From a virus (Duplodnaviria; Heunggongvirae; Uroviricota; Caudoviricetes), in IMG/VR virus record IMGVR_UViG_2574180019_000010, positions 1 through 39,851 of that record: a stretch of 39,851 nt of DNA. One strand, 5' to 3'. The notes beneath the pieces are model-generated. The model saw nothing but the letters and a program-made list of their open reading frames with translations, was not told where the DNA came from and searched no databases. Below, piece after piece: positions 2,465-39,440 of the stretch (positions are counted from its first letter, which is position 1; every line of letters starts with the position of its first letter). A program made the translations under genes and the position numbers.

Positions 2465-2817
2465 TACGCCTCCGATGTAACAGTCGTTATTCCATAAAGA
2501 GTGTCGATTTCAGCGGAAAACATGACACGTCGGGTCGTGGTATCCACCGTCGTATTGAAAGAGAGGATTGATTTAACGCCCCGCGTTTCGAGGATGCGCT
2601 TACGGATCGCCAGGTTGTAGGTTTCCAGCTTCTGCTTACCGAGTACGGACTGGATCCACGGAGTCCCCTCAGTGGTGTCGAGAAACCATTGCCCATACCA
2701 CAATTCGAATCGCGTTTTTACCGCCTGCGCCACGGCCTCCGGTGAGTTAATCAGCCAGGTGTCATCACCGCTGCCAAAGGTGTAATCGCCAACGGAGTCT
2801 TCACGTCTGTATCGCAT
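2464..2817 (-). CDS. Small baseplate protein, gpW/GP46-like
   Basis: 117 aa; start overlaps the stop of the spike gene. Confidence 0.5.
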   Translation of the reverse strand: MRYRREDSVGDYTFGSGDDTWLINSPEAVAQAVKTRFELWYGQWFLDTTEGTPWIQSVLGKQKLETYNLAIRKRILETRGVKSILSFNTTVDTTTRRVMFSAEIDTLYGITTVTSEA

Positions 2818-3572
2818 CAGTTAGGCGCTCCTGTGTTACCGCCGCCGGTCTGTACTCCGCCGTGCGTGTGCGTCATCAGGCTCTTACCACCAGCTTTTAC
2901 ATCGTTAGTCACCGTGACAGGGCCAAGCATCGTCGCGGTGCCGCCGCTTTCGCCCATCCCCTGAGAAAGATTCCCGTTTATTGTCACGTTGCCGTTTAGC
3001 GTGATGGTGGGTGATGTGATCGTGGTTCCTCCTTCTGCTGTCGCCGTCAGCGCGCCGGGGGTTTGAACCGTGATGTTATGGCCTGCGGCCACTTCCACAA
3101 ACGCAGCGCCATCATCAGTACGCAGTTGCGCGGCGCTGGTGCTGATTCCGCTGATTTTCTGCGCCTGCGACTGGGGACCTACAATACAAAACGCATCCGA
3201 TAAATCATGCATTCTGTCATCAACAGGCTCCTGTATTCCGCCGTTCTGCCACCAGAAATCAATACAACGATCGGCAAAAATCACCAAACATTCATCACCG
3301 GCTTTAACTGGAAACGTTAGCGTACAGCCTCCGCCACGCGGGAATACCACTGGCACATCCACCAGCAATGGGTAATTTTTGGTAATGCGGTTGCCGTCGT
3401 TATCAATTTCAACGTAACGGATAGCAGGCTGTACAACCGCCGTCACCGCATCAGGAGCGAATGACTGAACAATGCCAGGCAAGGCGACACGGATCTGGTT
3501 CTTTGTTGTTTCCCGTTCAGATTTAAATGTTTCGGCAAGGTCGCCGCTGCGGGTCTGGTCAGATACTGCCAT
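2817..3572 (-). CDS. Baseplate spike, gpV-like
   Basis: 251 aa; Gly-rich C-terminus with HTHGG motif as in spike apex; GGAG SD upstream. Confidence 0.6.
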   Translation of the reverse strand: MAVSDQTRSGDLAETFKSERETTKNQIRVALPGIVQSFAPDAVTAVVQPAIRYVEIDNDGNRITKNYPLLVDVPVVFPRGGGCTLTFPVKAGDECLVIFADRCIDFWWQNGGIQEPVDDRMHDLSDAFCIVGPQSQAQKISGISTSAAQLRTDDGAAFVEVAAGHNITVQTPGALTATAEGGTTITSPTITLNGNVTINGNLSQGMGESGGTATMLGPVTVTNDVKAGGKSLMTHTHGGVQTGGGNTGAPN

Positions 3573-3589
3573 TTAGTAGGCTCCAGAAA

Positions 3590-3620
3590 GCAAAAAACCC
3601 GCCAAGTGGCGGGTTTGAAT
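3590..3620 (-). terminator. Rho-independent terminator ending the inserted two-gene cassette
   Basis: Stem AAACCCGCC / GGCGGGTTT (3595-3603 and 3608-3616), 4-nt loop, T-run on the minus strand, 20 nt after the 3637 stop. Confidence 0.65.
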
Positions 3621-3636
3621 TTTGAGAAATTTCAGC

Positions 3637-4065
3637 TTATGCAGTTAACGAGTCATCACCAATCTTCAGTAATTGATTAACGATTGCATCGACCTCTTCC
3701 GCATCCAGAATTACACTTCTCGCGGTAATCCGGTTGATTTTCCGCTCAAGCTTGTAATCAGAATTAACACGTTGGGCATGCGTCATTTTCAGTTTAACGC
3801 CGATTTTCTTTACTGCGTTAACATCAACATCGTTAAGTGCAGCTGCCTCACCACTACAAAAGGCCGTATAGACTCGCATGTGAACTCCACCTTTTAGTTT
3901 TTCACCATCTTGTGTAGCGGTCGGTACCAGATTGTTGGTGATCCGTAAGGCGGAATGGTACATACCATAGTATGCTCGGCTAATAGCATTTCTCGTCCAC
4001 ATCTCACCGTTTAGAGCCAGGGAATGCTTAGCCAATTCAAGAAAACAGGTATGCTCAACCGACAT
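3637..4065 (-). CDS. Cassette gene 2: 142-aa protein of unknown function, possible HEPN-like fold
   Basis: TAATG stop/start overlap with the upstream gene; segment RNAISRAYYGMYHSALRI resembles a HEPN helix (Rx6H); GC about 40% against about 55% in flanking tail genes. Confidence 0.45.
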   Translation of the reverse strand: MSVEHTCFLELAKHSLALNGEMWTRNAISRAYYGMYHSALRITNNLVPTATQDGEKLKGGVHMRVYTAFCSGEAAALNDVDVNAVKKIGVKLKMTHAQRVNSDYKLERKINRITARSVILDAEEVDAIVNQLLKIGDDSLTA

Positions 4066-4796
4066 TAGAGTTCCCCGGCTTCAAAGCATCCGACGCATTC
4101 TGAATCCGCAAGCCCCGCAATAATAATCTCATCAGCCAAGGCATTATTCATCTGCGAAAGAAGCACTGGATCGTCTGTTTTGACTTCAACGAACAGCGTA
4201 TCAAGTTCTGACATTACATAAAAAGCATGAGCGCCAGCAAGACGAGCGCGGTACTTTTCTGCAACGTTCATCATGAGCCGCCCAATAGTTTTTAGCTCCT
4301 GAGCATGATCTTTTTGGGTATGCAGATAATTGAGCGTGTCATACCATTTGCCCATATCTTCAGGGCGCGGTACTTCCATTGCAGTTAGCATCGGCATCAC
4401 CTTTTCAAGCAAATCGATATCAACCCAGTATGCAGAAATTGTAGCAACCTCAGCCAATATCGTTGGATTAAGTGAATCAGATGCTTTCTGAATCATCACA
4501 TACTGGCGAGCATGCAAACCTAAGTTACGCAGCGCAATCGTATAGTTACAAAAAGAAACTGGATCGTTAGGCGCTATTCTCAACCCCCGCTCACAGAGTG
4601 AACATCCTTCATCTATTTCACCAAGAACAAGCTTAGCTAAGCCTTCAATTGATAGCCCCTGATAACGTTCAGGTAGTTTCTTCGCTTCACGAATGATTCG
4701 ATGGATTTCAAACTCACTCAGAAGGTTTTCACCCTTAGTTAATGAAGGAGTCAGAAGATCTAACAGTTCTCCTGATTTTGGCTGCGCTAAACTCAT
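4065..4796 (-). CDS. Cassette gene 1: 243-aa predicted alpha-helical protein of unknown function
   Basis: ORF with ATG start; lower GC than flanks; coupled to the 142-aa gene. Confidence 0.4.
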   Translation of the reverse strand: MSLAQPKSGELLDLLTPSLTKGENLLSEFEIHRIIREAKKLPERYQGLSIEGLAKLVLGEIDEGCSLCERGLRIAPNDPVSFCNYTIALRNLGLHARQYVMIQKASDSLNPTILAEVATISAYWVDIDLLEKVMPMLTAMEVPRPEDMGKWYDTLNYLHTQKDHAQELKTIGRLMMNVAEKYRARLAGAHAFYVMSELDTLFVEVKTDDPVLLSQMNNALADEIIIAGLADSECVGCFEAGEL

Positions 4797-4945
4797 GTTT
4801 TAGTTATTCCTGGCTTTAATGAAGTAGCATATCGATGGCAATCCACCATCAAAAAGTCAGTGCAGTGTAATCGCTCGTCTCAAAAAACAACAGTTTTTAG
4901 AGCACATTTTGTTGTTTTTCAGGCGTTACGAATTTCAGGTTACCT

Positions 4946-5287
4946 TCACCCAGCCACTTTTTTACAAGGGAAAGATCCGATGATTTTCGGCGCATCCATG
5001 CTGTTCTGCAGAAGCTGGACATTCAGGAATCGCGTTTCGGTACCAGGGCGACGAATGTATTCAAAGCCGTAGTTGTTACCGTCTTTGGCAGGCATTAGCC
5101 CCATATCAATCTTAATGCCATCAGCACCAAGATTTGTAATTTTCTGAGATGTGACGCGTTCACCGTTAATCATGTCCATTTCCCCCAACCTTGCAGTGAT
5201 GGTGTAAGGTCCACAATAAGCGGTGTAACCGCTTGCAGATGCCCCAAATGACATAAAGGCAACAATTAAAATGGCTAAGGCTTTCAC
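4946..5287 (-). CDS. Small secreted/periplasmic protein, possible moron
   Basis: 113 aa; GTG start with GGGAG SD; signal peptide MKALAILIVAFMSFGASASG; two Cys. Confidence 0.45.
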   Translation of the reverse strand: MKALAILIVAFMSFGASASGYTAYCGPYTITARLGEMDMINGERVTSQKITNLGADGIKIDMGLMPAKDGNNYGFEYIRRPGTETRFLNVQLLQNSMDAPKIIGSFPCKKVAG

Positions 5288-5289
5288 AT

Positions 5290-6351
5290 TTACTCCCGGT
5301 TAAGCGAGCCCTGAGTGCGGAGATCCGCCGCGCCACGCGCTTCGCACATCATATCCATGTACCACGCCAGGCCCCTTGTATCGCCAGTGTACATAATCCC
5401 GCGCACAATATAAACGCCATCCGTTGCGATGCTGGCAGGCTGCGATGTGGTGCCGCTTAGCGTGATATTTCCATCCGTGTTCTGGTCGGTGATCTGACCA
5501 CCAGCCATCGCAATATCGTTGTTCGACAAGGCGGTACGATACACGGAAGCCTGATCCAGCTGAATGAGTCCGTTAACCCGGATGTTCGGATTAATAAGCG
5601 CGCGGACGTTTACGCCGTTACCGATAGTCTGCTGCGGCATGCCAATAAGCCCGGTAGCGCTGTTGAGCACAATCGCTTCATGAACATATTCGTTATTCGC
5701 CACCATCTGGCGTTGACCGTCCACGAATTGCCATGTTGCGCCACATTGTCCGGCCACGTTATCCATAAGATGCCGTGTCATGCCGAACAGCACCCGCCCC
5801 CGGGGGAATACAGTAGCAGGCATTTCAGGCGTCAGGCCTTCGGTCGCACCTTTGGCTTCGAAGTCTTTCATCAGCGCACGGTTCACATCAGCGACCGTGT
5901 AACCGGCAGCCAGCGTCTGTGAGGTTATACTGGTGGCAAAAGCCAGATCAGTATCTGCTGCCTGAATCAGGACGTAGGAATCAACCGGACTGTCTTTTCC
6001 TGTGACCGAGTAGCGAATTTCACCGCTGAAAATCAGTCCGTAGTTGCGGCCATCTCTCTGGCCCACGTCCGCCGCGTCAACTTCCCGCACGGTCCCTACG
6101 TCGCTTGCTGACACCTCCGGCGCGATACCGTCGTAACCGGCAATCAGACGCACTTTCGAAAATTCCTGCCCGGTGATTCGGTTCACAGTATCTGCCGAGA
6201 GGTTATAAATTTTGATAGTCCCTACCCGGGACGCGCTGCTGATGTTGAACCAGTCGATCGTAAAGGTGACTTTGAAATCACTTAGCTCAATTCCCTGACC
6301 GTTCCCGTCCACAAGCTGCAGCTCGAAATGTCTCATCCAGTTCTGTGACAT
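5290..6351 (-). CDS. Tail/baseplate hub-like protein
   Basis: 353 aa; position downstream of tape measure and small tail proteins. Confidence 0.45.
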   Translation of the reverse strand: MSQNWMRHFELQLVDGNGQGIELSDFKVTFTIDWFNISSASRVGTIKIYNLSADTVNRITGQEFSKVRLIAGYDGIAPEVSASDVGTVREVDAADVGQRDGRNYGLIFSGEIRYSVTGKDSPVDSYVLIQAADTDLAFATSITSQTLAAGYTVADVNRALMKDFEAKGATEGLTPEMPATVFPRGRVLFGMTRHLMDNVAGQCGATWQFVDGQRQMVANNEYVHEAIVLNSATGLIGMPQQTIGNGVNVRALINPNIRVNGLIQLDQASVYRTALSNNDIAMAGGQITDQNTDGNITLSGTTSQPASIATDGVYIVRGIMYTGDTRGLAWYMDMMCEARGAADLRTQGSLNRE

Positions 6352-21713: not shown

Positions 21714-22055
21714 TTACTCCTTATGGGCACCGAACTTGTTACCGATGACCCTCATTGCCGCACCACGAATAGCATCAACACCAATCAGCCCCACCCCACC
21801 ACCAATGGCAACAGAAAGTGATTTAGGCCATCCGACATACTCAAGCGCGGATGCAAAGGTCAGCGTCAGAGCACCACAAAGCAGAATCTCAAGCGTTTTT
21901 CGTTTCCAGCCGCCGCCACCGCCAAAATAGGCAATGCGCAAACCAGCCATAATAATTGACATAACCACTGCGCCCAGCGGCGTATCTCCACGCCACCAAC
22001 TTTGTAAGAGTTCCAGTAAGTCAGGCCAGGAATGAGGGGCATTGTGCATTTTCAT
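21714..22055 (-). CDS. Holin with dual-start motif (antiholin/holin)
   Basis: M-K-M start (ATG 22055 and 22049) with SD GGAGGTGA; multiple TM segments; directly upstream of the endolysin. Confidence 0.6.
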   Translation of the reverse strand: MKMHNAPHSWPDLLELLQSWWRGDTPLGAVVMSIIMAGLRIAYFGGGGGWKRKTLEILLCGALTLTFASALEYVGWPKSLSVAIGGGVGLIGVDAIRGAAMRVIGNKFGAHKE

Positions 22056-22272
22056 AAGCCTCACCTCCGAGAGTTCGGATGGTGCTAAGTGTAAGATTCA
22101 GGCTCTCAGTCTTGCTAACAAGAAGTCGAGGATGTTTCCGGAGCCTAACAACGAAAAAGCCCCGGGACATGCCGGGGCCAGATGGAGTGCCAGATTAAGC
22201 TTCTGGCGGTATATACTCGTGTTTGATATCGTTAAATCGCCAAAAGTAACAATTCAAACAAAGAGGATTTTT

Positions 22273-22434
22273 ATGTCTGAAAAAAACAAGCCACAAGGTG
22301 AAAATAAACCTCAGCAACCCGTGGCACCAAAACCAACTCCAACACAAAGTACTGCAGACTTTGCTACACGTCGTGTTTTTGTTGGAGATTCTGCCGACTC
22401 AGTCATTGAACATATAAAAAAACAGCCGAGATAA
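22273..22434 (+). CDS. Small 53-aa protein convergent with the membrane moron gene
   Basis: ATG 22273 with SD AAGAGGA; 3' end overlaps the 22403-22972 gene by 32 nt. Confidence 0.35.
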   Translation: MSEKNKPQGENKPQQPVAPKPTPTQSTADFATRRVFVGDSADSVIEHIKKQPR

Positions 22435-22972
22435 ACATCGCCGCTACCGGAGCAAGGATGGTATACATCCTTGCTTTATCGAGACTCGTGCGGATTTTCT
22501 CATTTTCCAACAGTAACTCTCTTGCTGTATCACTCAAGTCAACAAGGCGATACCTTCGTATAAGCGGCAATAACTTATCAGGTCCTAAATATCCTGCATC
22601 AGCGAATATTTTAAAGCTCGAGGGCTCCATATCCTTATATTTTTCATGATATAGATGATCAGGAGGGGCATTGATCAGGCCCCTAACCTTCACAGATAAA
22701 CCAGTACATACCAAGTAAATGGCGCACCATGTCCATAGTAATGTAAATGTGGTAATTCCGGCGGTGAGAAAATCGAAATTAGTTTTCTGTGTCAGCAATA
22801 AAAAAGATGAGCCAATTCCAACAATCTGAATGTTCAGAAGTTTGTATCCATTCTCAACATTGGTTTTGTTAGAAAGATGAATCTCTCGTATCGTCTCTTC
22901 CCCTTGTTTTTCAAGATAATCGACGAGCTCATCATCTACTCCTAAAAAATAAACTTTAGGTAGTTCTCTCAT
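22403..22972 (-). CDS. Membrane protein moron, three predicted TM segments, unknown function
   Basis: ATG 22972 preceded by GGAGG; GC about 33%; between the Q-region terminator and the holin. Confidence 0.5.
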   Translation of the reverse strand: MRELPKVYFLGVDDELVDYLEKQGEETIREIHLSNKTNVENGYKLLNIQIVGIGSSFLLLTQKTNFDFLTAGITTFTLLWTWCAIYLVCTGLSVKVRGLINAPPDHLYHEKYKDMEPSSFKIFADAGYLGPDKLLPLIRRYRLVDLSDTARELLLENEKIRTSLDKARMYTILAPVAAMFISAVFLYVQ

Positions 22973-23080
22973 CTCACCTCCACATCCTGTACTGAACACA
23001 ATTTTACCAGAATGTCTCGATTCTAGGTATTCCGCCAGGAATCGCGCTTCAGAAATGAAACATCAGGTTCGCCAGTACCA

Positions 23081-25181: not shown

Positions 25182-25337
25182 TTACTCCTCAGGTTCGTAG
25201 ACTGTGAAGACAGCGACCTCCGTCTGGCCGGTTCGGATTCGTACCTCGCAGAGGTCTTTCCTCGTTACCAGTGCCGTCACTATGACGGTTAAACAGATGA
25301 CGATCAGGGCGATTAACATCGCCTTTTGCTGCTTCAT
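25182..25337 (-). CDS. hokD: Hok-family type I toxin, HokD/RelF-like
   Basis: 51 aa MKQQKAMLIALIVICLTVIVTALVTRKDLCEVRIRTGQTEVAVFTVYEPEE; SD AAGGAG upstream; in-frame upstream extension from ATG 25394 is mok-like. Confidence 0.7.
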   Translation of the reverse strand: MKQQKAMLIALIVICLTVIVTALVTRKDLCEVRIRTGQTEVAVFTVYEPEE

Positions 25338-25350
25338 AGCCTGCTTCTCC

Positions 25351-25460
25351 TTGCCTTTCGGCACGTAAGAGGCTAACCTAGATTTGCCGTTCATAGATTG
25401 AGCCTCAGATTAATGTTAAGCGTCTTGCAGGACGCGTAATGTTAACTGGGGCTTTTCTCT
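25351..25460 (+). ncRNA. Candidate Sok-like antisense RNA with promoter
   Basis: -35 TTGCCT (25351-25356), 17-bp spacer, -10 TAACCT (25374-25379); predicted transcript is antisense to the hok leader; no clean terminator found. Confidence 0.3.
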
Positions 25461-25548
25461 ATCTGCCTTTTGGTGTTCATGCCTGAGACAGATAGCCTCA
25501 AGCACCCGCAGCAATTTTACTTAACTCCCTTTTTCCCGCAAACCGTTT

Positions 25549-25632: not shown

Positions 25633-26252
25633 CGTAAAATATCCTCCGCGTTTATCAGTCCGTTTCGCTTCAGGTAGACCATCGCCTTCTCCGGTAATTT
25701 GCAGTCCGGCTTCGCTTTCCTCAATTGGCTAACCAGTTGTTTAATCAGCATTGTTAATTCCCGTACCTGAACGCCCCCTTTGGTATCCTCATTGGTGAGG
25801 ATACCATCGCCTTTCCCCTGAAGCATGGCGGCGCAGCAGGCGTTCCATGAAATTTCCTGAAGGGAACGACGAATCTGTGTGCTGCATATACTCCTCCCTG
25901 ACTCCTGGCTGTTAAACCATGTTTCAAATTCCGGCACTACTGGTGCTGGTTGGGTGGTGACATTGGCAAAGGCTGCACGCAACCCGGCCTTAATTTCCTC
26001 TACCTCATCAGCACCTGGCGATGAATCTGACAGTGCGTGATGGAATGCGTAAGCCATGTCGTCGTTTACTGCAACTGGCTCTGCTTCAAGCGATGTCAGT
26101 GCGATTCGTGCCAGTTCTAGATCTCGTTCAACCATCTCAAGAACAACTTTGCAGTCCGCACCTTCTTTGCTAACGCGTCCTTTCACGTTTTCCAGATAAC
26201 TAACGCTTTCGCGTGCATGGGAGATTAACTGTTCTTTGGTAAAGGTGGTCAT
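25629..26252 (-). CDS. Hypothetical early-region protein
   Basis: 207 aa. Confidence 0.4.
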   Translation of the reverse strand: MTTFTKEQLISHARESVSYLENVKGRVSKEGADCKVVLEMVERDLELARIALTSLEAEPVAVNDDMAYAFHHALSDSSPGADEVEEIKAGLRAAFANVTTQPAPVVPEFETWFNSQESGRSICSTQIRRSLQEISWNACCAAMLQGKGDGILTNEDTKGGVQVRELTMLIKQLVSQLRKAKPDCKLPEKAMVYLKRNGLINAEDILR

Positions 26253-26262
26253 TTGTTACTCC

Positions 26263-26526
26263 TTAACCCGCAGTGCTTTCAACTGATGAGGGGAACAAAA
26301 TCTTTTCATCAAACCCTGCATTCATATCATGGACAGCAACACACCAATCCATTGACGAACGATTATCAAGAGCCTCCATGATTTCATCCATGCGGCGTAG
26401 GTCATACAGGTAAATGCTTTTATCGCCAATGGTGTAAAAGCCTATTTTTTTCGGTGACGGACAGCGATCAAGAACGTCCTGTAATTCGTTCAACCATGCT
26501 TGTTCTTTTTTTGTCAAAGTTGCCAT
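26263..26526 (-). CDS. Hypothetical protein
   Basis: 87 aa from ATG 26526 with SD AAGGA. Confidence 0.4.
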   Translation of the reverse strand: MATLTKKEQAWLNELQDVLDRCPSPKKIGFYTIGDKSIYLYDLRRMDEIMEALDNRSSMDWCVAVHDMNAGFDEKILFPSSVESTAG

Positions 26527-26527
26527 A

Positions 26528-26746
26528 TCAGCTTTCCTTATATGGGTTGATTTTGTTGTGCAGTGTGTTGAACGACGCCCATACCACGTCGTTATACAAT
26601 TCAATAACTGGCTCAATTACTTTTCCGATTATCCAGGCCAGTAATAGCGGGGATATCGGTATCATCAACACGATAAACAGAATGAGAAACAAAAATTCTG
26701 TCGCTCTACTTTTTCGCGGATATTCTTTTCTGAATAATGTAGTCAT
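26528..26746 (-). CDS. Small membrane protein
   Basis: 72 aa with a hydrophobic core. Confidence 0.4.
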   Translation of the reverse strand: MTTLFRKEYPRKSRATEFLFLILFIVLMIPISPLLLAWIIGKVIEPVIELYNDVVWASFNTLHNKINPYKES

Positions 26747-26778
26747 TTCTTACCGCCCTTTCGGGCGGCCTCCTGACA

Positions 26779-26991
26779 TTAATCGTTGTGATAACTCATA
26801 GCTTCATTTGCAGCATCAACTGGATCAACATCCCACCAGCAATAATTTGAGTCGGCTCCTTCAGGTGTCCACGGCTCTAATTCATTTTTTGCCGCATTCT
26901 CGTCGCCAGTAATTTTAAAAATCTGCTCAGAAAATTTCCTCACCCACTCGTTATATTTTTCCGCATTAATGGTTTTCTGTGTATTTAACAT
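26779..26991 (-). CDS. Hypothetical protein
   Basis: 70 aa; SD GGAGG upstream. Confidence 0.4.
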   Translation of the reverse strand: MLNTQKTINAEKYNEWVRKFSEQIFKITGDENAAKNELEPWTPEGADSNYCWWDVDPVDAANEAMSYHND

Positions 26992-27041
26992 AGATATACC
27001 TCCAGTTAAGGATTTGATTTTATTTACAGTGCTAAATTTAT

Positions 27042-32608: not shown

Positions 32609-33016
32609 ACCATTTATTGGATTAATTCAATATTCTTGCTGTAGGGGTATAGCCGAGGCCACCAAAGCCCGGAGGTGGTGAAATAAAACCGGGCACAACA
32701 CCAAGGCGCATTTCCGGTATCCATAAAGAGTCGGTCTTGTCTGTTAAATTTAAATGGTGGGAGTGCGCCTCCGGTTGTAAATAACGACATTGCTATGTGT
32801 AGTCTTTGGCGGCATCAGTTCTACTCCGTGGCTGCCCTGCCGCCCCTTTTTAAAGTGAATTTTGTGATGCGGTGAATGCGGCTAAGCGCACGCGGCACAG
32901 TTAAAAGCATCAGTGTTATGGGTGGATTATCCGGCGTTAATTGTTAACTGGTTAACGTCACCTGGAGGCACCAGGCACCGCATCGACAAAATTCATTTGT
33001 AAAAATGGAGATAATT

Positions 33017-33238
33017 ATGATTGCTCATCACTTCGGAACTGATGAAATACCACGTCAGTGTGTGACTCCTGGCGATTATGTTCTTCATGAAGGTCGGACA
33101 TATATCGCCTCGGCAAACAATATTAAAAAGCGAAAACTTTATATTCGTAACCTGACTACAAAAACATGCATTTCTGACTGCATGATTAAAGTCTTCCTCG
33201 GTCGTGATGGTTTACCTGTAAAGGCGGAGTCATGGTGA
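33017..33238 (+). CDS. kilR: KilR cell-division inhibitor
   Basis: 73 aa [38 protein letters not shown] matches recalled Rac KilR. Confidence 0.7.
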
Positions 33239-33408
33239 TGACTAAGAAAATAAAATGTGCTTATCACCTTTGCAATAAAGAAATTGAAGAAAGCAAAATC
33301 ATTACAAGACCACTTCATTTCATGCGTGGAGTTATACCAACGACGGAAATGAAAAAATATTGTAGTGAAATCTGTGCCGAAAAAGACCAGATGGCACACG
33401 AACTTTAA
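33238..33408 (+). CDS. ydaE: YdaE-like small Cys-rich protein
   Basis: 56 aa with CxxC...CxxxC; ATG overlaps the kilR stop. Confidence 0.5.
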   Translation: MTKKIKCAYHLCNKEIEESKIITRPLHFMRGVIPTTEMKKYCSEICAEKDQMAHEL

Positions 33409-33482
33409 TTAACTGACTATCCGAAACTGAATTTATGCCAGCAATGGCAGGGATTCTATCAATCTTAAAAAAGGAAACAGAA

Positions 33483-33779
33483 ATGAGCATTATTGAATGT
33501 GAAATTGAACTTAATGTCATTAACGATTCTCTCGCCGAATTCAAATGTGGGAATACATTACATGGTTTTATTCAGATTTCCCAAAAAGAAAACGTTACGG
33601 TAATTATTGATGGCAGTTACGTTCTGGGAACATTTGATTGTTATGTGTGTGCCATTAAAGAAGTCGCATTACTCGCAGCTCGTATTGAAGAAGCTGACAA
33701 GAAATACGGCATCAGTTATCAACGACTGAAAGAACTCTCAGGCATTGCATCATCAGTTCATTTCTTTTATGCAATCTGA
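33483..33779 (+). CDS. racC: RacC-like protein
   Basis: 98 aa; SD AAGGAAAC; immediately upstream of recE. Confidence 0.5.
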   Translation: MSIIECEIELNVINDSLAEFKCGNTLHGFIQISQKENVTVIIDGSYVLGTFDCYVCAIKEVALLAARIEEADKKYGISYQRLKELSGIASSVHFFYAI

Positions 33780-33802
33780 ATATGAGTTGAGGTTAAAAAA
33801 CA

Positions 33803-36454
33803 ATGAGCACAAAACCACTCTTCCTGTTACGGAAAGCGAAAAAATCATCCGGTGAACCTGACGTCGTCCTGTGGGCAAGCGACGATTTTGAATCGACCTG
33901 TGCCACTCTGGACTACCTGATCGTTAAGTCAGGTAAAAAACTGAGCAGCTATTTTAAAGCTGTTGCCACGAATTTTCCTGTCGTTAATGACCTGCCCCCT
34001 GAAGGTGAGATCGATTTTACCTGGAGTGAACGCTATCAACTCAGCAAAGACTCCATGACCTGGGAACTAAAACCGGGAGCAGCGCCAGACGACGTTCACC
34101 ACCAGGATAATGCTCAAGAAACCAAAGAACTGGCGGGAGGCCAGGAAGAAAACGCGCAGGCAGACGCCCACGAGGATTGCCAGGATTGCGAAGTCTCTGT
34201 AGCCACTTTGCGGTTCACACAGCGTCTTCTGCACATTTTTACGTATGCAGCCGGGGATCGGAAATACCTGCATCATGCCACCCGTGAACAACGCAAACAC
34301 ATTACTGCTCTTGAGATGGATCAGGAAAACAGCTATGTCCAGAATCTGCTGTTGGCCATACGCAGCATGGCAGAACCGACAACTCTGGATAATGCCGCCC
34401 TGCTCCGCCTGACTGATGCAATTAAGGCAGTGTTCTCTATCACGAAAAAACATCAGCCCTATGAATTTAAGAATTTCATTTCAGCCTGGCTGGATACCGA
34501 ACACATTGATCGCGGTCTTCTGACAAAAGAATGGCGAAAAGGAAATCGTGTTTCACGCATCACGCGCACGGCTTCCGGCGCTAATGCTGGCGGCGGGAAC
34601 CTCACCGATCGCGGCGAAGGTTTCGTTCACGATCTGACGTCACTGGCGCGCGACGTAGCCACTGGCGTACTGGCTCGTTCAATGGACGTGGACATTTATA
34701 ACCTTCATCCGGCACACGCTAAACGTGTCGAGGAAATTATCGCTGAAAATAAACCACCCTTTTCTGTTTTCCGCGACAAATTCATCACCATGCCTGGTGG
34801 GCTGGATTATTCCCGCGCCATCGTGGTTGCGTCCGTAAAAGAAGCACCAATTGGGATCGAGGTTATCCCCGCACACGTCACTGAATATCTGAACAAAGTA
34901 CTGACTGAAACTGATCATGCCAACCCTGATCCAGAAATCGTGGATATTGCCTGCGGTCGTTCCTCTGCCCCGATGCCGCAGCGTGTAACAGAAGAAGAAA
35001 AACAGGATGATGAAGAAAAACTGCAACCATCTTGCGCAATGGCAGATGAACAGGCAACGGCTGAAACAGTGGAACCGGATGCAACTGAACATCATCAGGA
35101 CACGCAGTCGCTGGATGCTCAGTCACAGGTAAATTCTGTTGATGCGAAATATCAGAAACTGCGGGCAGAACTCCATGAAGCCCGGAAAAACATTCCGCCC
35201 AAAAATCCTGTCGATGCAGACAAATTACTGGCTGCCTCTCGCGGAGAATTTGTTGAAGGGATTAGCGACCCGAACGATCCGAAATGGGTTAAGGGGATCC
35301 AGACTCGCGATTCTGTGTACCAGAACCAGCCAGAAACGGAAAAAATCAGCCCGGATGCGAAACAACCTGAGCCAGTAGTGCAACAGGAACCGGAAATAGT
35401 CTGCAATGCCTGCGGTCAGACTGGCGGGGATAACTGCCCTGACTGTGGTGCGGTGATGGGCGACGCAACATACCAGGAAACATTCGGTGAAGAGAATCAG
35501 GTTGAAGCTAAGGAAAAAGATCCGGAGGAAATGGAAGGCGCTGAACATCCGCACAATGAGAATGCTGGCAGCGATCCGCATCGCGATTGCAGTGATGAAA
35601 CTGGCGAAGTCGCAGATCCCGTAATCGTAGAAGACATAGAGCCAGGTATTTATTACGGAATTTCGAATGAGAATTACCACGCGGGTCCCGGTGTCAGTAA
35701 GTCTCAGCTCGATGACATTGCTGATACTCCGGCACTGTATTTGTGGCGTAAAAATGCCCCCGTGGACACTACAAAGACAAAAACGCTCGATTTAGGAACC
35801 GCTTTCCACTGCCGGGTACTTGAACCGGAAGAATTCAGTAACCGCTTTATCGTAGCACCTGAATTTAACCGCCGTACAAACGCCGGAAAAGAAGAAGAGA
35901 AAGCGTTTCTGATGGAATGCGCAAGCACAGGAAAAACGGTTATCACTGCGGAAGAAGGCCGGAAAATTGAACTCATGTATCAAAGCGTTATGGCTTTGCC
36001 GCTGGGGCAATGGCTTGTTGAAAGCGCCGGACACGCTGAATCATCAATTTACTGGGAAGATCCGGAAACAGGAATTTTGTGTCGGTGCCGTCCGGACAAA
36101 ATTATTCCTGAATTTCACTGGATCATGGACGTGAAAACCACAGCGGATATTCAACGATTCAAAACGGCTTATTACGACTACCGCTATCACGTTCAGGATG
36201 CATTCTACAGTGACGGTTATGAAGCACAGTTTGGCGTGCTGCCAACTTTCGTTTTTCTGGTTGCCAGCACAACTGTTGAATGCGGACGTTACCCGGTTGA
36301 GATTTTCATGATGGGCGAAGAAGCAAAACTGGCAGGCCAGCAGGAATATCACCGCAATCTGAGGACCCTGGCTGACTGCCTGAATACCGATGAATGGCCA
36401 GCTATTAAAACGTTATCACTGCCCCGCTGGGCTAAGGAGTATGCAAATGACTAA
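33803..36454 (+). CDS. recE: Exonuclease VIII, RecE
   Basis: 883 aa; acidic low-complexity middle; C-terminal nuclease domain ([22 protein letters not shown]); upstream of and overlapping recT. Confidence 0.8.
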
Positions 36455-37256
36455 GCAACCACCTATCGCAAAAGCCGATCTGCAAAAAACCCAGGGAAAC
36501 CGTGCACCAGCAGCAGTAAAAAATAACGACGTGATCAGCTTTATTAATCAGCCATCAATGAAAGAGCAACTGGCAGCAGCTCTCCCACGCCATATGACGG
36601 CTGAACGAATGATACGTATCGCCACCACAGAAATTCGTAAGGTTCCGGCGCTAGGAAACTGTGACACCATGAGTTTTGTCAGTGCGATCGTTCAGTGTTC
36701 ACAGCTCGGCCTTGAGCCAGGTAGCGCCCTCGGCCACGCATATTTACTGCCTTTTGGTAATAAAAACGAAAAGAGCGGTAAAAAGAACGTTCAGCTAATC
36801 ATTGGTTATCGCGGCATGATTGATCTGGCTCGCCGTTCTGGTCAAATCGCCAGCCTGTCAGCCCGTGTTGTCCGTGAAGGTGACGAGTTTAGTTTTGAAT
36901 TTGGCCTTGATGAAAAGTTAATACACCGCCCGGGAGAAAACGAAGATGCACCAGTGACCCACGTCTATGCTGTCGCAAGACTGAAAGACGGAGGGACTCA
37001 GTTTGAAGTTATGACGCGCAAACAGATTGAACTGGTGCGCAGCCAGAGTAAGGCTGGTAATAACGGGCCATGGGTAACTCACTGGGAAGAAATGGCAAAA
37101 AAAACGGCTATTCGTCGCCTGTTTAAATACCTGCCTGTCTCAATTGAAATCCAGCGTGCAGTATCAATGGATGAAAAGGAACCACTGACAATCGATCCGG
37201 CAGACTCCTCTGTATTAACCGGGGAATACAGTGTAATCGATAATTCAGAAGAATAA
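36447..37256 (+). CDS. recT: Recombinase RecT
   Basis: 269 aa [21 protein letters not shown] matches recalled RecT; SD AAGGAG; 8-nt overlap with recE. Confidence 0.85.
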
Positions 37257-37300
37257 TTCAGCCTGGCGGTGTAATGCACCGCCAACGTGAGACAGTTTTT

Positions 37301-37507
37301 ATGACAAAAATTATGAGATATGACGATGTTAAACCATGTCCGTTTTGTGGTTGTCCATCTGTTACGGTGAAAGCAATTTCAGGATATTACCGGGCAAAAT
37401 GCAACGGATGCGAATCCCGAACTGGCTATGGTGGAAGTGAAAAAGAAGCACTCGAAAGATGGAATAAACGAACTACTGGAAATAATAATGGAGGTGTTCA
37501 TGTATAA
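37301..37507 (+). CDS. ralR: Restriction alleviation protein RalR/Lar
   Basis: Contains MRYDDVKPCPFCGCPSVTVKAISGYYRAKCNGCESRTGYGG; start may be 37313. Confidence 0.6.
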   Translation: MTKIMRYDDVKPCPFCGCPSVTVKAISGYYRAKCNGCESRTGYGGSEKEALERWNKRTTGNNNGGVHV

Positions 37508-37688
37508 AATAACTGCCACTATTGAAAAAGAAGGTGGCACTCCTACTAACTGGACAAGATATTCAAAATCTAAATTAACGAAATCAGAATGCGAAAAAAT
37601 GCTCTCAGGGAAAAAAGAAGCAGGCGTGTCCAGAGAGCAGAAAGTAAAGCTGATAAATTTTAATTGCGAGAAACTTCTGTCCTCGTGA
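37500..37688 (+). CDS. ydaC: YdaC-like small protein
   Basis: 62 aa MYKITATIEKEGGTPTNW; SD GGAGGT. Confidence 0.5.
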   Translation: MYKITATIEKEGGTPTNWTRYSKSKLTKSECEKMLSGKKEAGVSREQKVKLINFNCEKLLSS

Positions 37689-37794
37689 GTTGCATTATAT
37701 ACAAATTAGAACTTCATAGCTGATTATTAAAAATCAACCACACCCGCCAGTATTCTGTATATTTACTGGCGGTCATATCGTAAGAGGTATGGCA

Positions 37795-38076
37795 ATGAAT
37801 CTTGTGACACTCAAAACGTGGGGAAAACTCAGATATCCGGATAACCCACCATCAATATCAACGCTGAGACGATGGGCAAGGAATGGAAACATTTATCCTG
37901 CACCTGAACTACACGGGAGAAGTTACAGGGTGGTTCCGGAAGCTTTCTATATCAACCCAAATAAGGTTGATACCGATATAACACACCATCAGCCTAATGG
38001 GCGACAAGGGAGAGACAGTCCGTTACTGGAGAAGTTAAAACATGCAGCGGAAAAAATACGATCCCAATTTGCCTAA
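37795..38076 (+). CDS. xisR: Excisionase
   Basis: Lambda Xis-like N-terminus (TLRRWARNGNIYPAP); overlaps the int start. Confidence 0.55.
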   Translation: MNLVTLKTWGKLRYPDNPPSISTLRRWARNGNIYPAPELHGRSYRVVPEAFYINPNKVDTDITHHQPNGRQGRDSPLLEKLKHAAEKIRSQFA

Positions 38077-39118
38077 AAACTTAACATATCGAAGGAGGGA
38101 CAAAGCATATTACTGGCGCAACCCTCTGACGAAAGAAGAATTTACACTAGGTAAAATTTCAAGAAGAGATGCAGTAGCGCAGGCAATTGAAGCAAATCAT
38201 TATATATACAAAAACTACTCTCCTGCTGCCTTAATTGAAAAACTAAAAGGGTTCGACTCATTTACTATGGCAGACTGGATTGAACGTTACAAAACGATTC
38301 TTATAAGGAGAAAAGTGTCCAGAAATACTTATAAAATTCGGGTAAATCAACTGGAGACAATAAAAGAAAAATTAGGAGGAGTTTTACTGACAGAAATAAC
38401 CACTCGCCATATTGCCGAGTTTCTTGATTTGTGGATTGAAGGAGGGAAAAACACGATGGCAGGATCAATGCGTTCTGTGTTATCTGATATGTTCCGCGAG
38501 GCCATTGTTGAAGGACGTATATCTCAAAATCCAGTAACGCCAACAAGAGCACCGAAAATAGTAGTTACAAGAGAACGGCTGAAACTAAAGACATACAACT
38601 GCATCAGGGAGGCAGCAGATCAACTTCCGACATGGTTCCCATTAGCTATGGACTTAGCCCTTGTAACAGGACAACGTCGCGAAGACATAACAAATATGCG
38701 GTTCAGTGAGATTTATGATGATCGTCTCCACATCAGGCAAATTAAGACAGGAATGATGATTGCTATCCCCCTGTCACTCAGCCTTCCTGTCGCTGGTTTA
38801 CGACTTGGTACAGTAGTTGAACAGTGCCGCATGGTAAGTAGGGGGGATTATCTAATCAGTGCCGGGATTAGAAAAAACAGCCCTGACGGCAGCATTCACC
38901 CGGACGGCCTGACAAAGAAATTTGTCGCAGCCAGAAAATTAACAGGTATCCAGTTCAGTGAAAACCCACCAACTTTTCACGAGATCAGAAGTCTGGCTGG
39001 ACGATTGTACAAAGAAACATGTGGGGAAGAATTTGCTCAACGTCTACTTGGCCACACATCGGAGAAGACAACAAAAATGTATCTTGATGAGAGAGAAAAA
39101 ACGTACTTACTGCTCTGA
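38042..39118 (+). CDS. intR: Lambda-family tyrosine integrase
   Basis: 358 aa; N-terminus like lambda Int arm-binding domain ([27 protein letters not shown]); C-terminal HxxR...Y motifs. Confidence 0.65.
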
Positions 39119-39165: not shown

Positions 39166-39283
39166 AAAAAAGACCGGAATACAGAAATTCGAGTAAATTT
39201 CGAGTAATTTCGGGGAGACGTTTGCAACTAATTGATTTTAAATACAATTAAAAAAAGACCGAATACGATTCCTGTATTCGGTC
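39166..39283. repeat. att-region repeats downstream of int
   Basis: AAAAAAGACCG(G)AATAC at 39166-39182 and 39251-39266; tandem TTCGAGTAA units at 39187-39208; hairpin GACCGAATAC / GTATTCGGTC at 39257-39283. Confidence 0.4.
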
Positions 39284-39440
39284 CAGGGAAATGGCTCTTG
39301 GGAGAGAGCCGTGCGCTAAAAGTTGGCATTAATGCAGGCTTAGTTGCCTTGCTCTTTAAGAATAGATGACGACGCCAGGTTTTCCAGTTTGCGTGCAAAA
39401 TGGTCAATAAAAAGCGTGGTGGTCATCAGCTTAAATGTTA

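Follow-up and report, generated by a model that had tools for sequence, protein, structure and literature searches.

We analysed a 39,851-nucleotide (nt) stretch of virus DNA (Duplodnaviria; Heunggongvirae; Uroviricota; Caudoviricetes; IMG/VR record IMGVR_UViG_2574180019_000010, positions 1 to 39,851; hereafter the window), in which a two-gene cassette interrupts the baseplate operon of a SEN34-like, myovirus-tailed Escherichia coli prophage. The upstream gene (4065..4796, minus strand) encodes a protein of 243 amino acids (aa) and the downstream gene (3637..4065, minus strand) a protein of 142 aa. The two open reading frames (ORFs) have one base in common, within a cTAATGt stop/start overlap, which confirms the pair of translationally coupled genes between hub-like and spike genes that a first-pass annotation, made by a model from the sequence, had described. 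The cassette lies between the genes for a 353-aa baseplate hub (5290..6351, minus strand; phrog_196 baseplate hub, E 1.2e-87; PF22759 E217_GP41) on its upstream side and a 251-aa baseplate spike (2817..3572, minus strand; PF18352, E 7.9e-43, and PF18946 Apex) on its downstream side, with a conserved 113-aa gene (4946..5287, minus strand; phrog_3443, E 2.2e-46), which the first-pass annotation does not name, also intervening next to the hub. Homologues of both cassette genes occur at 40–88% identity across Enterobacterales, and AlphaFold2 models reach a pLDDT (predicted local distance difference test) of 91 for the 142-aa protein and 90 for the 243-aa protein; on these grounds we regard both genes as real. 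The segment that carries them (3617–4945, 1.33 kb) has a G+C content (GC) of 43.1%, compared with 54.7% in the hub gene, 54.2% in the spike gene and a mean of 51.8% for the structural module, placing it in the lowest 0.05% of same-length windows within 588–21000. GC at third codon positions (GC3) is likewise 0.38–0.41 in the cassette versus 0.54–0.62 in hub and spike. The contrast therefore runs in the direction given earlier (38–47% against 57%), but is somewhat smaller (43.1% against 54–55%).

To define the borders of the cassette we compared the window by BLAST with related prophages in which other cargo takes this position. Breakpoints fell at 3615–3619 on the spike side and at 4944–4959 on the hub side, where similarity stops at the stop codon of the 113-aa gene, leaving that gene outside the cassette and its stop codon as the upstream border. 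The hub is 89–99% identical in prophages with other cargo. On the spike side, a terminator scan identified a G+C-rich, intrinsic-terminator-like hairpin (3616..3595, minus strand; nine pairs, six of them G-C, a 4-nt loop and a T-run) directly 5' of the spike ribosome-binding site. The first-pass annotation had assigned this hairpin to the cassette as its own terminator. We found instead that all six aligned cargo variants, one of them from Enterobacter, have the same stem, T-run and spike ribosome-binding site (GGAG), as the string AACCCGCC..GGCGGGTTTTTTG.TTTCTGGAGCCTAC.AAATG (dots mark varying positions), and that they vary only in the loop of the hairpin and in all sequence 5' of it. This alignment rules out that the hairpin travels with the cassette; it belongs to the fixed backbone and marks one border of a cargo slot. 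Breakpoints and alignments together thus set the variable unit at 3617–4945, comprising the two genes, a 3' tail from the stop codon of the 142-aa gene to the backbone hairpin (3617..3636, minus strand), across which the alignment diverges, and a 5' intergenic region (4797..4945, minus strand; 37.6% GC) that cannot be aligned with the other cargo variants. The latter holds a perfect 10-nt A+T-rich inverted repeat (4883–4892 / 4910–4919) followed by a T-run.

The hub-to-spike stretch was matched in 320 of 5,426 complete E. coli genomes (~6%), and 32–33 of these 320 (~10%) carry the cassette allele of the window. In the other genomes the slot is taken up by a YafO-family toxin preceded by a 190-aa gene (locus L002), by a DUF4282 protein (L003), by a DUF2335 protein (L004) or by other short genes. 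In E. coli O45:H2 FWSEC0003 (L027 702–1256, minus strand) it encodes a 184-aa protein followed by a 56-aa ORF; the 184-aa protein has a weak PADLOC match of the PycTM / 2TM-effector type (E 2.6e-4), making it another possible defence-type cargo. A more distant Pantoea myovirus has no slot, its hub gene overlapping the spike gene. That the pair is an accessory insertion, as first proposed, is borne out by these comparisons: 33 of the 320 hub-and-spike prophages have it, it is not universal among related prophages, and unrelated cargo takes the same position in others. The segment 3617–4945 is thus horizontally exchanged two-gene cargo in a variable slot. Our literature search found no description of this baseplate-operon slot.

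We next asked what the two proteins are. The AlphaFold2 model of the 142-aa protein is a helical bundle (helices 5–17, 21–43, 61–71, 82–104 and 112–132) with a four-helix up-and-down fold that can be superimposed on solved HEPN domains. Foldseek searches of this model against the PDB also returned HEPN structures as top matches, although with weak E-values (best 0.017). Pfam (E <= 1) and NCBIfam scans of the protein gave no match, and the PADLOC model HEPN_IX matched it below threshold and in part (E 0.0094; 1.6e-4 to 0.009 across other alleles). A family profile that includes the diverged allele of strain E2348/69 matches the HEPN structure 2hsb at E 7.7e-4 and aligns over its full length to 9xbd, a 'HEPN domain-containing protein', and a profile search of a large protein collection retrieved distant members that carry PF05168 or are named HEPN/UPF0332. 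The 142-aa protein therefore has a HEPN domain of the HEPN-T (AF0298/UPF0332) type. The HEPN call made by eye in the first-pass annotation stands, while the motif on which it was based does not: RNAISRAYYGMYH lies in helix 2 (21–43), and the catalytic position of HEPN domains is at the end of helix 3.

In the 142-aa protein the end of that helix (82–104) reads R99-V-N-S-D103-Y104. In an earlier description of HEPN-T (PF05168) proteins (Anantharaman et al. 2013, PMC3710099), several members have Asp in place of the His of the canonical Rx4-6H motif at the helix 3 end; AF0298-type proteins, and AbiV likewise, retain the Arg and offer another conserved His from the insert that separates helices 2 and 3, and helix 2 holds a conserved acidic residue. 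Across 14 sequences at 25–46% identity we found E21, which opens helix 2, H62, which lies within the insert between helices 2 and 3 (44–81), and R99, D103 and Y104 to be invariant, and these five residues coincide with the AF0298-type alternative active site of PMC3710099. H62 also aligns with a His of 9xbd. R25, S29, R30, Y32, Y33 and H37 are further invariant residues of the subfamily; the position of R30 is Thr in 2hsb and that of H37 is Tyr in 9xbd. Given this pattern, the 142-aa protein is predicted to be catalytically competent, as a putative ribonuclease (RNase) effector.

The 243-aa partner is modelled as an all-helical array to about residue 181, followed by a β-β-α-β unit (186–240). 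Its family profiles match consensus TPR proteins over residues ~42–112 (E 1e-12 with profile A2 and 1e-49 with the wider profile A7), that is, tandem 34-residue helix-turn-helix repeats. Searched exhaustively with a profile, 1.84 billion representative proteins yielded about 50 full-length relatives of 236–276 aa, together with many long multi-repeat proteins that match only the ~42–112 region, in 5–10 stretches each, and that we take to be generic TPR proteins. Pfam TPR models match four of 36 members of the partner family and nothing else recurs; the partner of the window itself has only a sub-threshold TPR_17 match. The best PADLOC match of the partner, PDC-M71B, was sub-threshold and partial (E 0.037), and the partners of other alleles gave no match. 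The family remains collinear and homologous even at 17–24% identity, and in its C-terminal domain only N217 and F238 are near-universal. That no motif could be named for this protein at first is in keeping with these results, in which the family has no name beyond its TPR repeats.

Alleles were counted over the same 5,426 complete E. coli genomes, and their position relative to the slot was examined at one to three loci for each. We found four diverged alleles in E. coli, together present in at least 79 of the genomes, and every example examined lies in this slot. They comprise the window type (243+142 aa; 33 genomes), an OkiPb01683 type (243+140 aa; 12 genomes), an L025 type (257+131 aa; 27 genomes) and an E2348/69 type (256+131 aa; 7 genomes), with the locus tags E2348C_RS13345 and RS13350 in E2348/69 itself. 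In the third of these the small gene had been missed by RefSeq: locus L025 has an overlapping 131-aa HEPN ORF (RSAISRAYYSMLHE ... RNEADYDL; L025 525–920, minus strand), as does L026, and since RefSeq annotates only the 257-aa partner, about 440 bp look non-coding in 27 E. coli genomes. The partner diverges faster than the HEPN protein, at 24% versus 46% identity to the Klebsiella allele and 17% versus 25% to that of E2348/69.

Outside E. coli, the pair occupies the same slot in Enterobacter and is found at several other kinds of site. In Klebsiella lambdoid prophages it lies between DUF7301 and NinE/NinG (nin region), and in Serratia in an integrase island adjoining hok/gef; P2-like prophages of Vibrio have it flanked by the portal/ogr genes and the replication gene, at a site that we take to correspond to the P2 tin/old hotspot. 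In the Pantoea myovirus (L022 2093–4423) it occupies another baseplate slot, with a Dit-like gene on one side and a plug gene on the other, and immediately follows a DDE_3 transposase; in Providencia (L020 2216–4417) the partner is cut to 162 aa (~88–243) beside an insertion sequence (IS; rve/HTH_Tnp_1) and still overlaps the HEPN gene. IS elements may thus help to move or erode the module. In all contexts examined (Klebsiella, Vibrio, Enterobacter, Serratia, Pantoea and Providencia) the two genes keep the same order and overlap by 1 to 20 bases. In strain CS6L the cassette is 99.9–100% identical to that of the window, including a 100% identical 5' intergenic region, whereas identity is 97.4% in the hub and 93.8% in the spike, suggesting that diverged prophages have recently exchanged the cassette. 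The HEPN gene was found in only three of 50,697 phage records, all annotated as hypothetical. The pair is thus an accessory, mobile, obligately paired and translationally coupled unit.

From the fold of the HEPN protein and the context of the pair, we propose, at a probability of roughly 0.55, that this unit is a toxin-based module in which a HEPN toxin is held by a TPR inhibitor or sensor and which serves anti-phage defence or addiction. The finding that the slot elsewhere holds a YafO toxin-antitoxin pair supports this proposal. In such a module the HEPN protein would dimerise to form an RNase whose site is made up of R99 of the degenerate R-x3-D-Y motif, H62 and E21. The TPR protein would take the place of the usual minimal nucleotidyltransferase (MNT) partner, binding the HEPN protein and keeping it inactive, and would leave a TPR surface free to perceive a signal that comes from a phage or from stress. 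For silencing, residues 88–243 may suffice, as the truncated Providencia partner hints. A HEPN protein freed by a phage cue, or by loss of its partner, would cleave RNA and arrest the cell, either defending it against competing phages by abortive infection or stabilising the element post-segregationally. The hairpin of the backbone probably keeps cargo transcripts of the lysogen out of the late spike and baseplate genes; late transcription would have to read through it. A more specific form of this proposal, which we hold tentatively and at somewhat less than even odds, is that the pair represents an undescribed two-component anti-phage system: a TPR receptor gating an AF0298-type HEPN RNase (H62, R99, E21), present as multiple alleles at an unrecognised baseplate-operon hotspot, delimited by an invariant terminator, that ~6% of complete E. 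coli genomes carry.

Several observations weigh against a toxin-based module. The His of the canonical Rx4-6H motif is absent from the helix-3 end of the 142-aa protein, and the RNase activity of AF0298-type HEPN-T proteins is itself a prediction in PMC3710099. In the partner we found no helix-turn-helix, ribbon-helix-helix, AbrB or other DNA-binding domain of the kind seen in antitoxins, and TPR proteins are generic scaffolds, making a sensing role speculative. No system model in PADLOC-DB v2 was matched significantly by the pair. As for expression in the lysogen, a scan of 3300–5400 for sigma-70-like promoters found none, compared with 3.3 expected by chance. The region 4800–4945, described at first as an inverted-repeat and promoter-like region, thus keeps its inverted repeat and has no promoter at the scan threshold. 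A by-eye arrangement of TTGATG, a 15-nt spacer and TATGCT upstream of the 243-aa start is not claimed as a promoter, as its spacer is outside the usual range, and the Klebsiella and Vibrio loci that we scanned also have no convincing promoter upstream of the pair. We presume that a promoter lies within 4797–4945. Of the features of a moron, the layout that the first-pass annotation had invoked, foreign composition is present, the terminator is present but belongs to the backbone, and the promoter scan is empty.

The HEPN-T domain could instead be catalytically inert and serve as a nucleotide- or ligand-binding adaptor (cf. the HEPN domain of sacsin) that, together with the TPR protein, modulates a host or prophage process, for example superinfection exclusion or lysogeny regulation, no RNA being cut. 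We consider this unlikely, given the dense set of residues that is invariant across 25% identity (E21, R25, R30, H37, H62, R99, D103 and Y104) and given that PMC3710099 interprets such a pattern as an alternative active site and not as loss of activity. Similarly improbable, in our judgement, is a plain addiction toxin-antitoxin pair, in which a labile TPR antitoxin would restrain the HEPN toxin and the module would stabilise the prophage or the slot cargo and have no part in phage defence. The arrangement is that of a type II system, with an antitoxin-like gene upstream, the toxin downstream and overlapping codons; moreover, the same slot of other prophages has a bona fide YafO toxin pair, and the Serratia copy adjoins hok/gef genes. 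However, the partner, at 243 aa and with TPR repeats, would be an unusually large type II antitoxin, and no DNA-binding domain was detected in it. The strong divergence of four alleles at a single locus and the presence of the pair in variable accessory regions in other types of prophage indicate conflict with other phages. Addiction and defence are also compatible with each other.

Because the genes sit inside the baseplate operon, on the same strand and between hub and spike, we also considered that they encode baseplate assembly chaperones or minor virion components. This is very improbable: the allele occurs in only ~10% of E. coli prophages with hub and spike, the others having unrelated cargo; a Pantoea relative has overlapping hub and spike genes and no slot; and the pair is found at non-tail sites (lambdoid nin, the replication side of P2-like prophages and an integrase island). 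Its composition is foreign, and it has no structural PHROG annotation, its strong PHROG matches being only to families of unknown function. There is just as little to recommend a type VII HEPN-MNT system in which the upstream protein is a cryptic nucleotidyltransferase that AMPylates the invariant Y104: HEPN-T proteins normally pair with an MNT (PMC3710099), and among recent PDB entries the closest relative, 9xbd, is accompanied by 9xbc, in which the aligned tyrosine is changed (Y to F), yet the partner gave no nucleotidyltransferase signal in any test (Pfam and profile searches).

Comparison with known systems places the proposed HEPN-TPR module near, and apart from, several of them. Within the HEPN-T family (PF05168; UPF0332/COG1895) it belongs with the AF0298-like branch (2hsb; see also 1ufb TT1696, 1wol ST0689 and 9xbd), whose structures are 14–18% identical to the 142-aa protein; the latter adds the invariant R25, R30 and H37, and its partner is a TPR protein where the usual genomic partner is an MNT. 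Type VII HepT/MntA systems (5yep, 7ae2, 8xdj) have an R-x4-H-x-Y motif, whereas the window protein has R-x3-D-Y and no MNT, so that neutralisation, if any, would be by binding and not by AMPylation. AbiV, a lactococcal abortive-infection HEPN RNase (PDB 9bj5; bioRxiv 10.1101/2024.05.05.592566), is neutralised by RNA (type III), unlike the pair, which has a 243-aa protein partner, and a PADLOC scan gave no AbiV match for the pair. HepS (Gifsy-1; PMC13043305) and Tha (Staphylococcus aureus prophages; PMC11087260) are, like the pair, HEPN effectors carried as accessory cargo of temperate phages, and the site of HepS, a lambdoid accessory region, is comparable to that of the Klebsiella allele. Both, however, are single proteins, and HepS has a canonical Rx4-6H motif (R100-H105) and itself senses tail proteins, while the window pair has a separate TPR protein and a non-canonical HEPN domain. 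DS-28 ('ANEX'; validated with DefensePredictor, PMC13092281) is a two-gene E. coli system that likewise combines a small HEPN nuclease with a ~250-aa (252-aa) protein of unknown function, but its gene order is reversed and its HEPN motif is canonical (R-NSVA-H). Identity of the pair with DS-28 was rejected, as hhalign gave probabilities of 0.2% and 0.4%, which indicates no homology. The slot itself resembles P2/P4 hotspots and morons (PMC9122126) in having low-GC variable cargo that is bounded by a terminator between conserved phage genes. It differs from the P2/P4 hotspots in lying inside the baseplate operon of a SEN34-like prophage and in that the terminator is a fixed backbone element common to all cargos. 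Literature searches with the RefSeq accessions of the pair, with HEPN_IX and with UPF0332 together with HEPN returned no description of the pair.

Bacterial immunity makes repeated use of HEPN RNases as effectors, and prophage-encoded HEPN abortive-infection proteins have precedents in HepS (PMC13043305) and Tha (PMC11087260), with the RNase AbiV also to be cited here. A HEPN gene as prophage cargo is therefore unsurprising in itself; what is new here is a TPR partner for a predicted HEPN toxin and a hotspot for which no description was found. The large HEPN-T / UPF0332 branch that has no canonical His has seen little functional characterisation and has been considered almost only in connection with its nucleotidyltransferase partners. 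A compact, mobile HEPN-TPR pair would provide a tractable E. coli model for it, with one allele in the well-studied strain E2348/69, and raises the questions of whether the alternative active site is that of a real nuclease and how a repeat-protein partner controls or triggers a HEPN toxin. In addition, the order of the slot (113-aa gene, cargo, invariant hairpin, spike) can be searched in about 320 of the 5,426 E. coli genomes for toxin-antitoxin and defence candidates.

Further observations concern the backbone around the slot. The 113-aa protein (4946–5287) has a signal-peptide-like N-terminus (MKALAILIVAFMSFGASASG) and is kept between hub and slot in every related prophage examined. The GC of its gene, 46%, is below that of hub and spike; phrog_3443 is a family of unknown function, and a positional homologue is annotated as 'STY1065/STY2022 family phage-derived protein'. 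The 113-aa protein could be a secreted moron or a virion component. As the invariant hairpin lies 5' of the spike gene, late transcription must cross it, which implies read-through or antitermination, or else a part in setting stoichiometry; the genes downstream of it that need late transcription are those for the spike, the sheath initiator, baseplate J, the wedge and the fibre. Within the spike gene, homology to loci L001, L004, L005, L006 and L011 ends or drops to ~75% at 3107/3108, whereas L002 and L003 hold 94–96% identity through the spike down to 2800. The C-terminal ~97 residues of the spike thus appear, from these alignments, to be exchanged as a separate mosaic block.

Elsewhere in the prophage, low-GC kilobase blocks lie outside the structural module (22001–23000, 26001–27000, 33001–34000 and 37001–39000; 0.39–0.43 versus a window mean of 0.49) and may mark additional accessory genes. 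Rfam matches at gathering score were found at 25332–25507, 32794–32845, 37506–37684 and 39246–39390, and comprise sok (the hok/sok antitoxin), DicF, RalA (the RalR antitoxin RNA) and SraC/RyeA with SdsR/RyeB. Further toxin-antitoxin and small RNA cargo is thus present in an early region of Rac/lambdoid type, and the chromosomal ryeA/ryeB locus probably adjoins the prophage.

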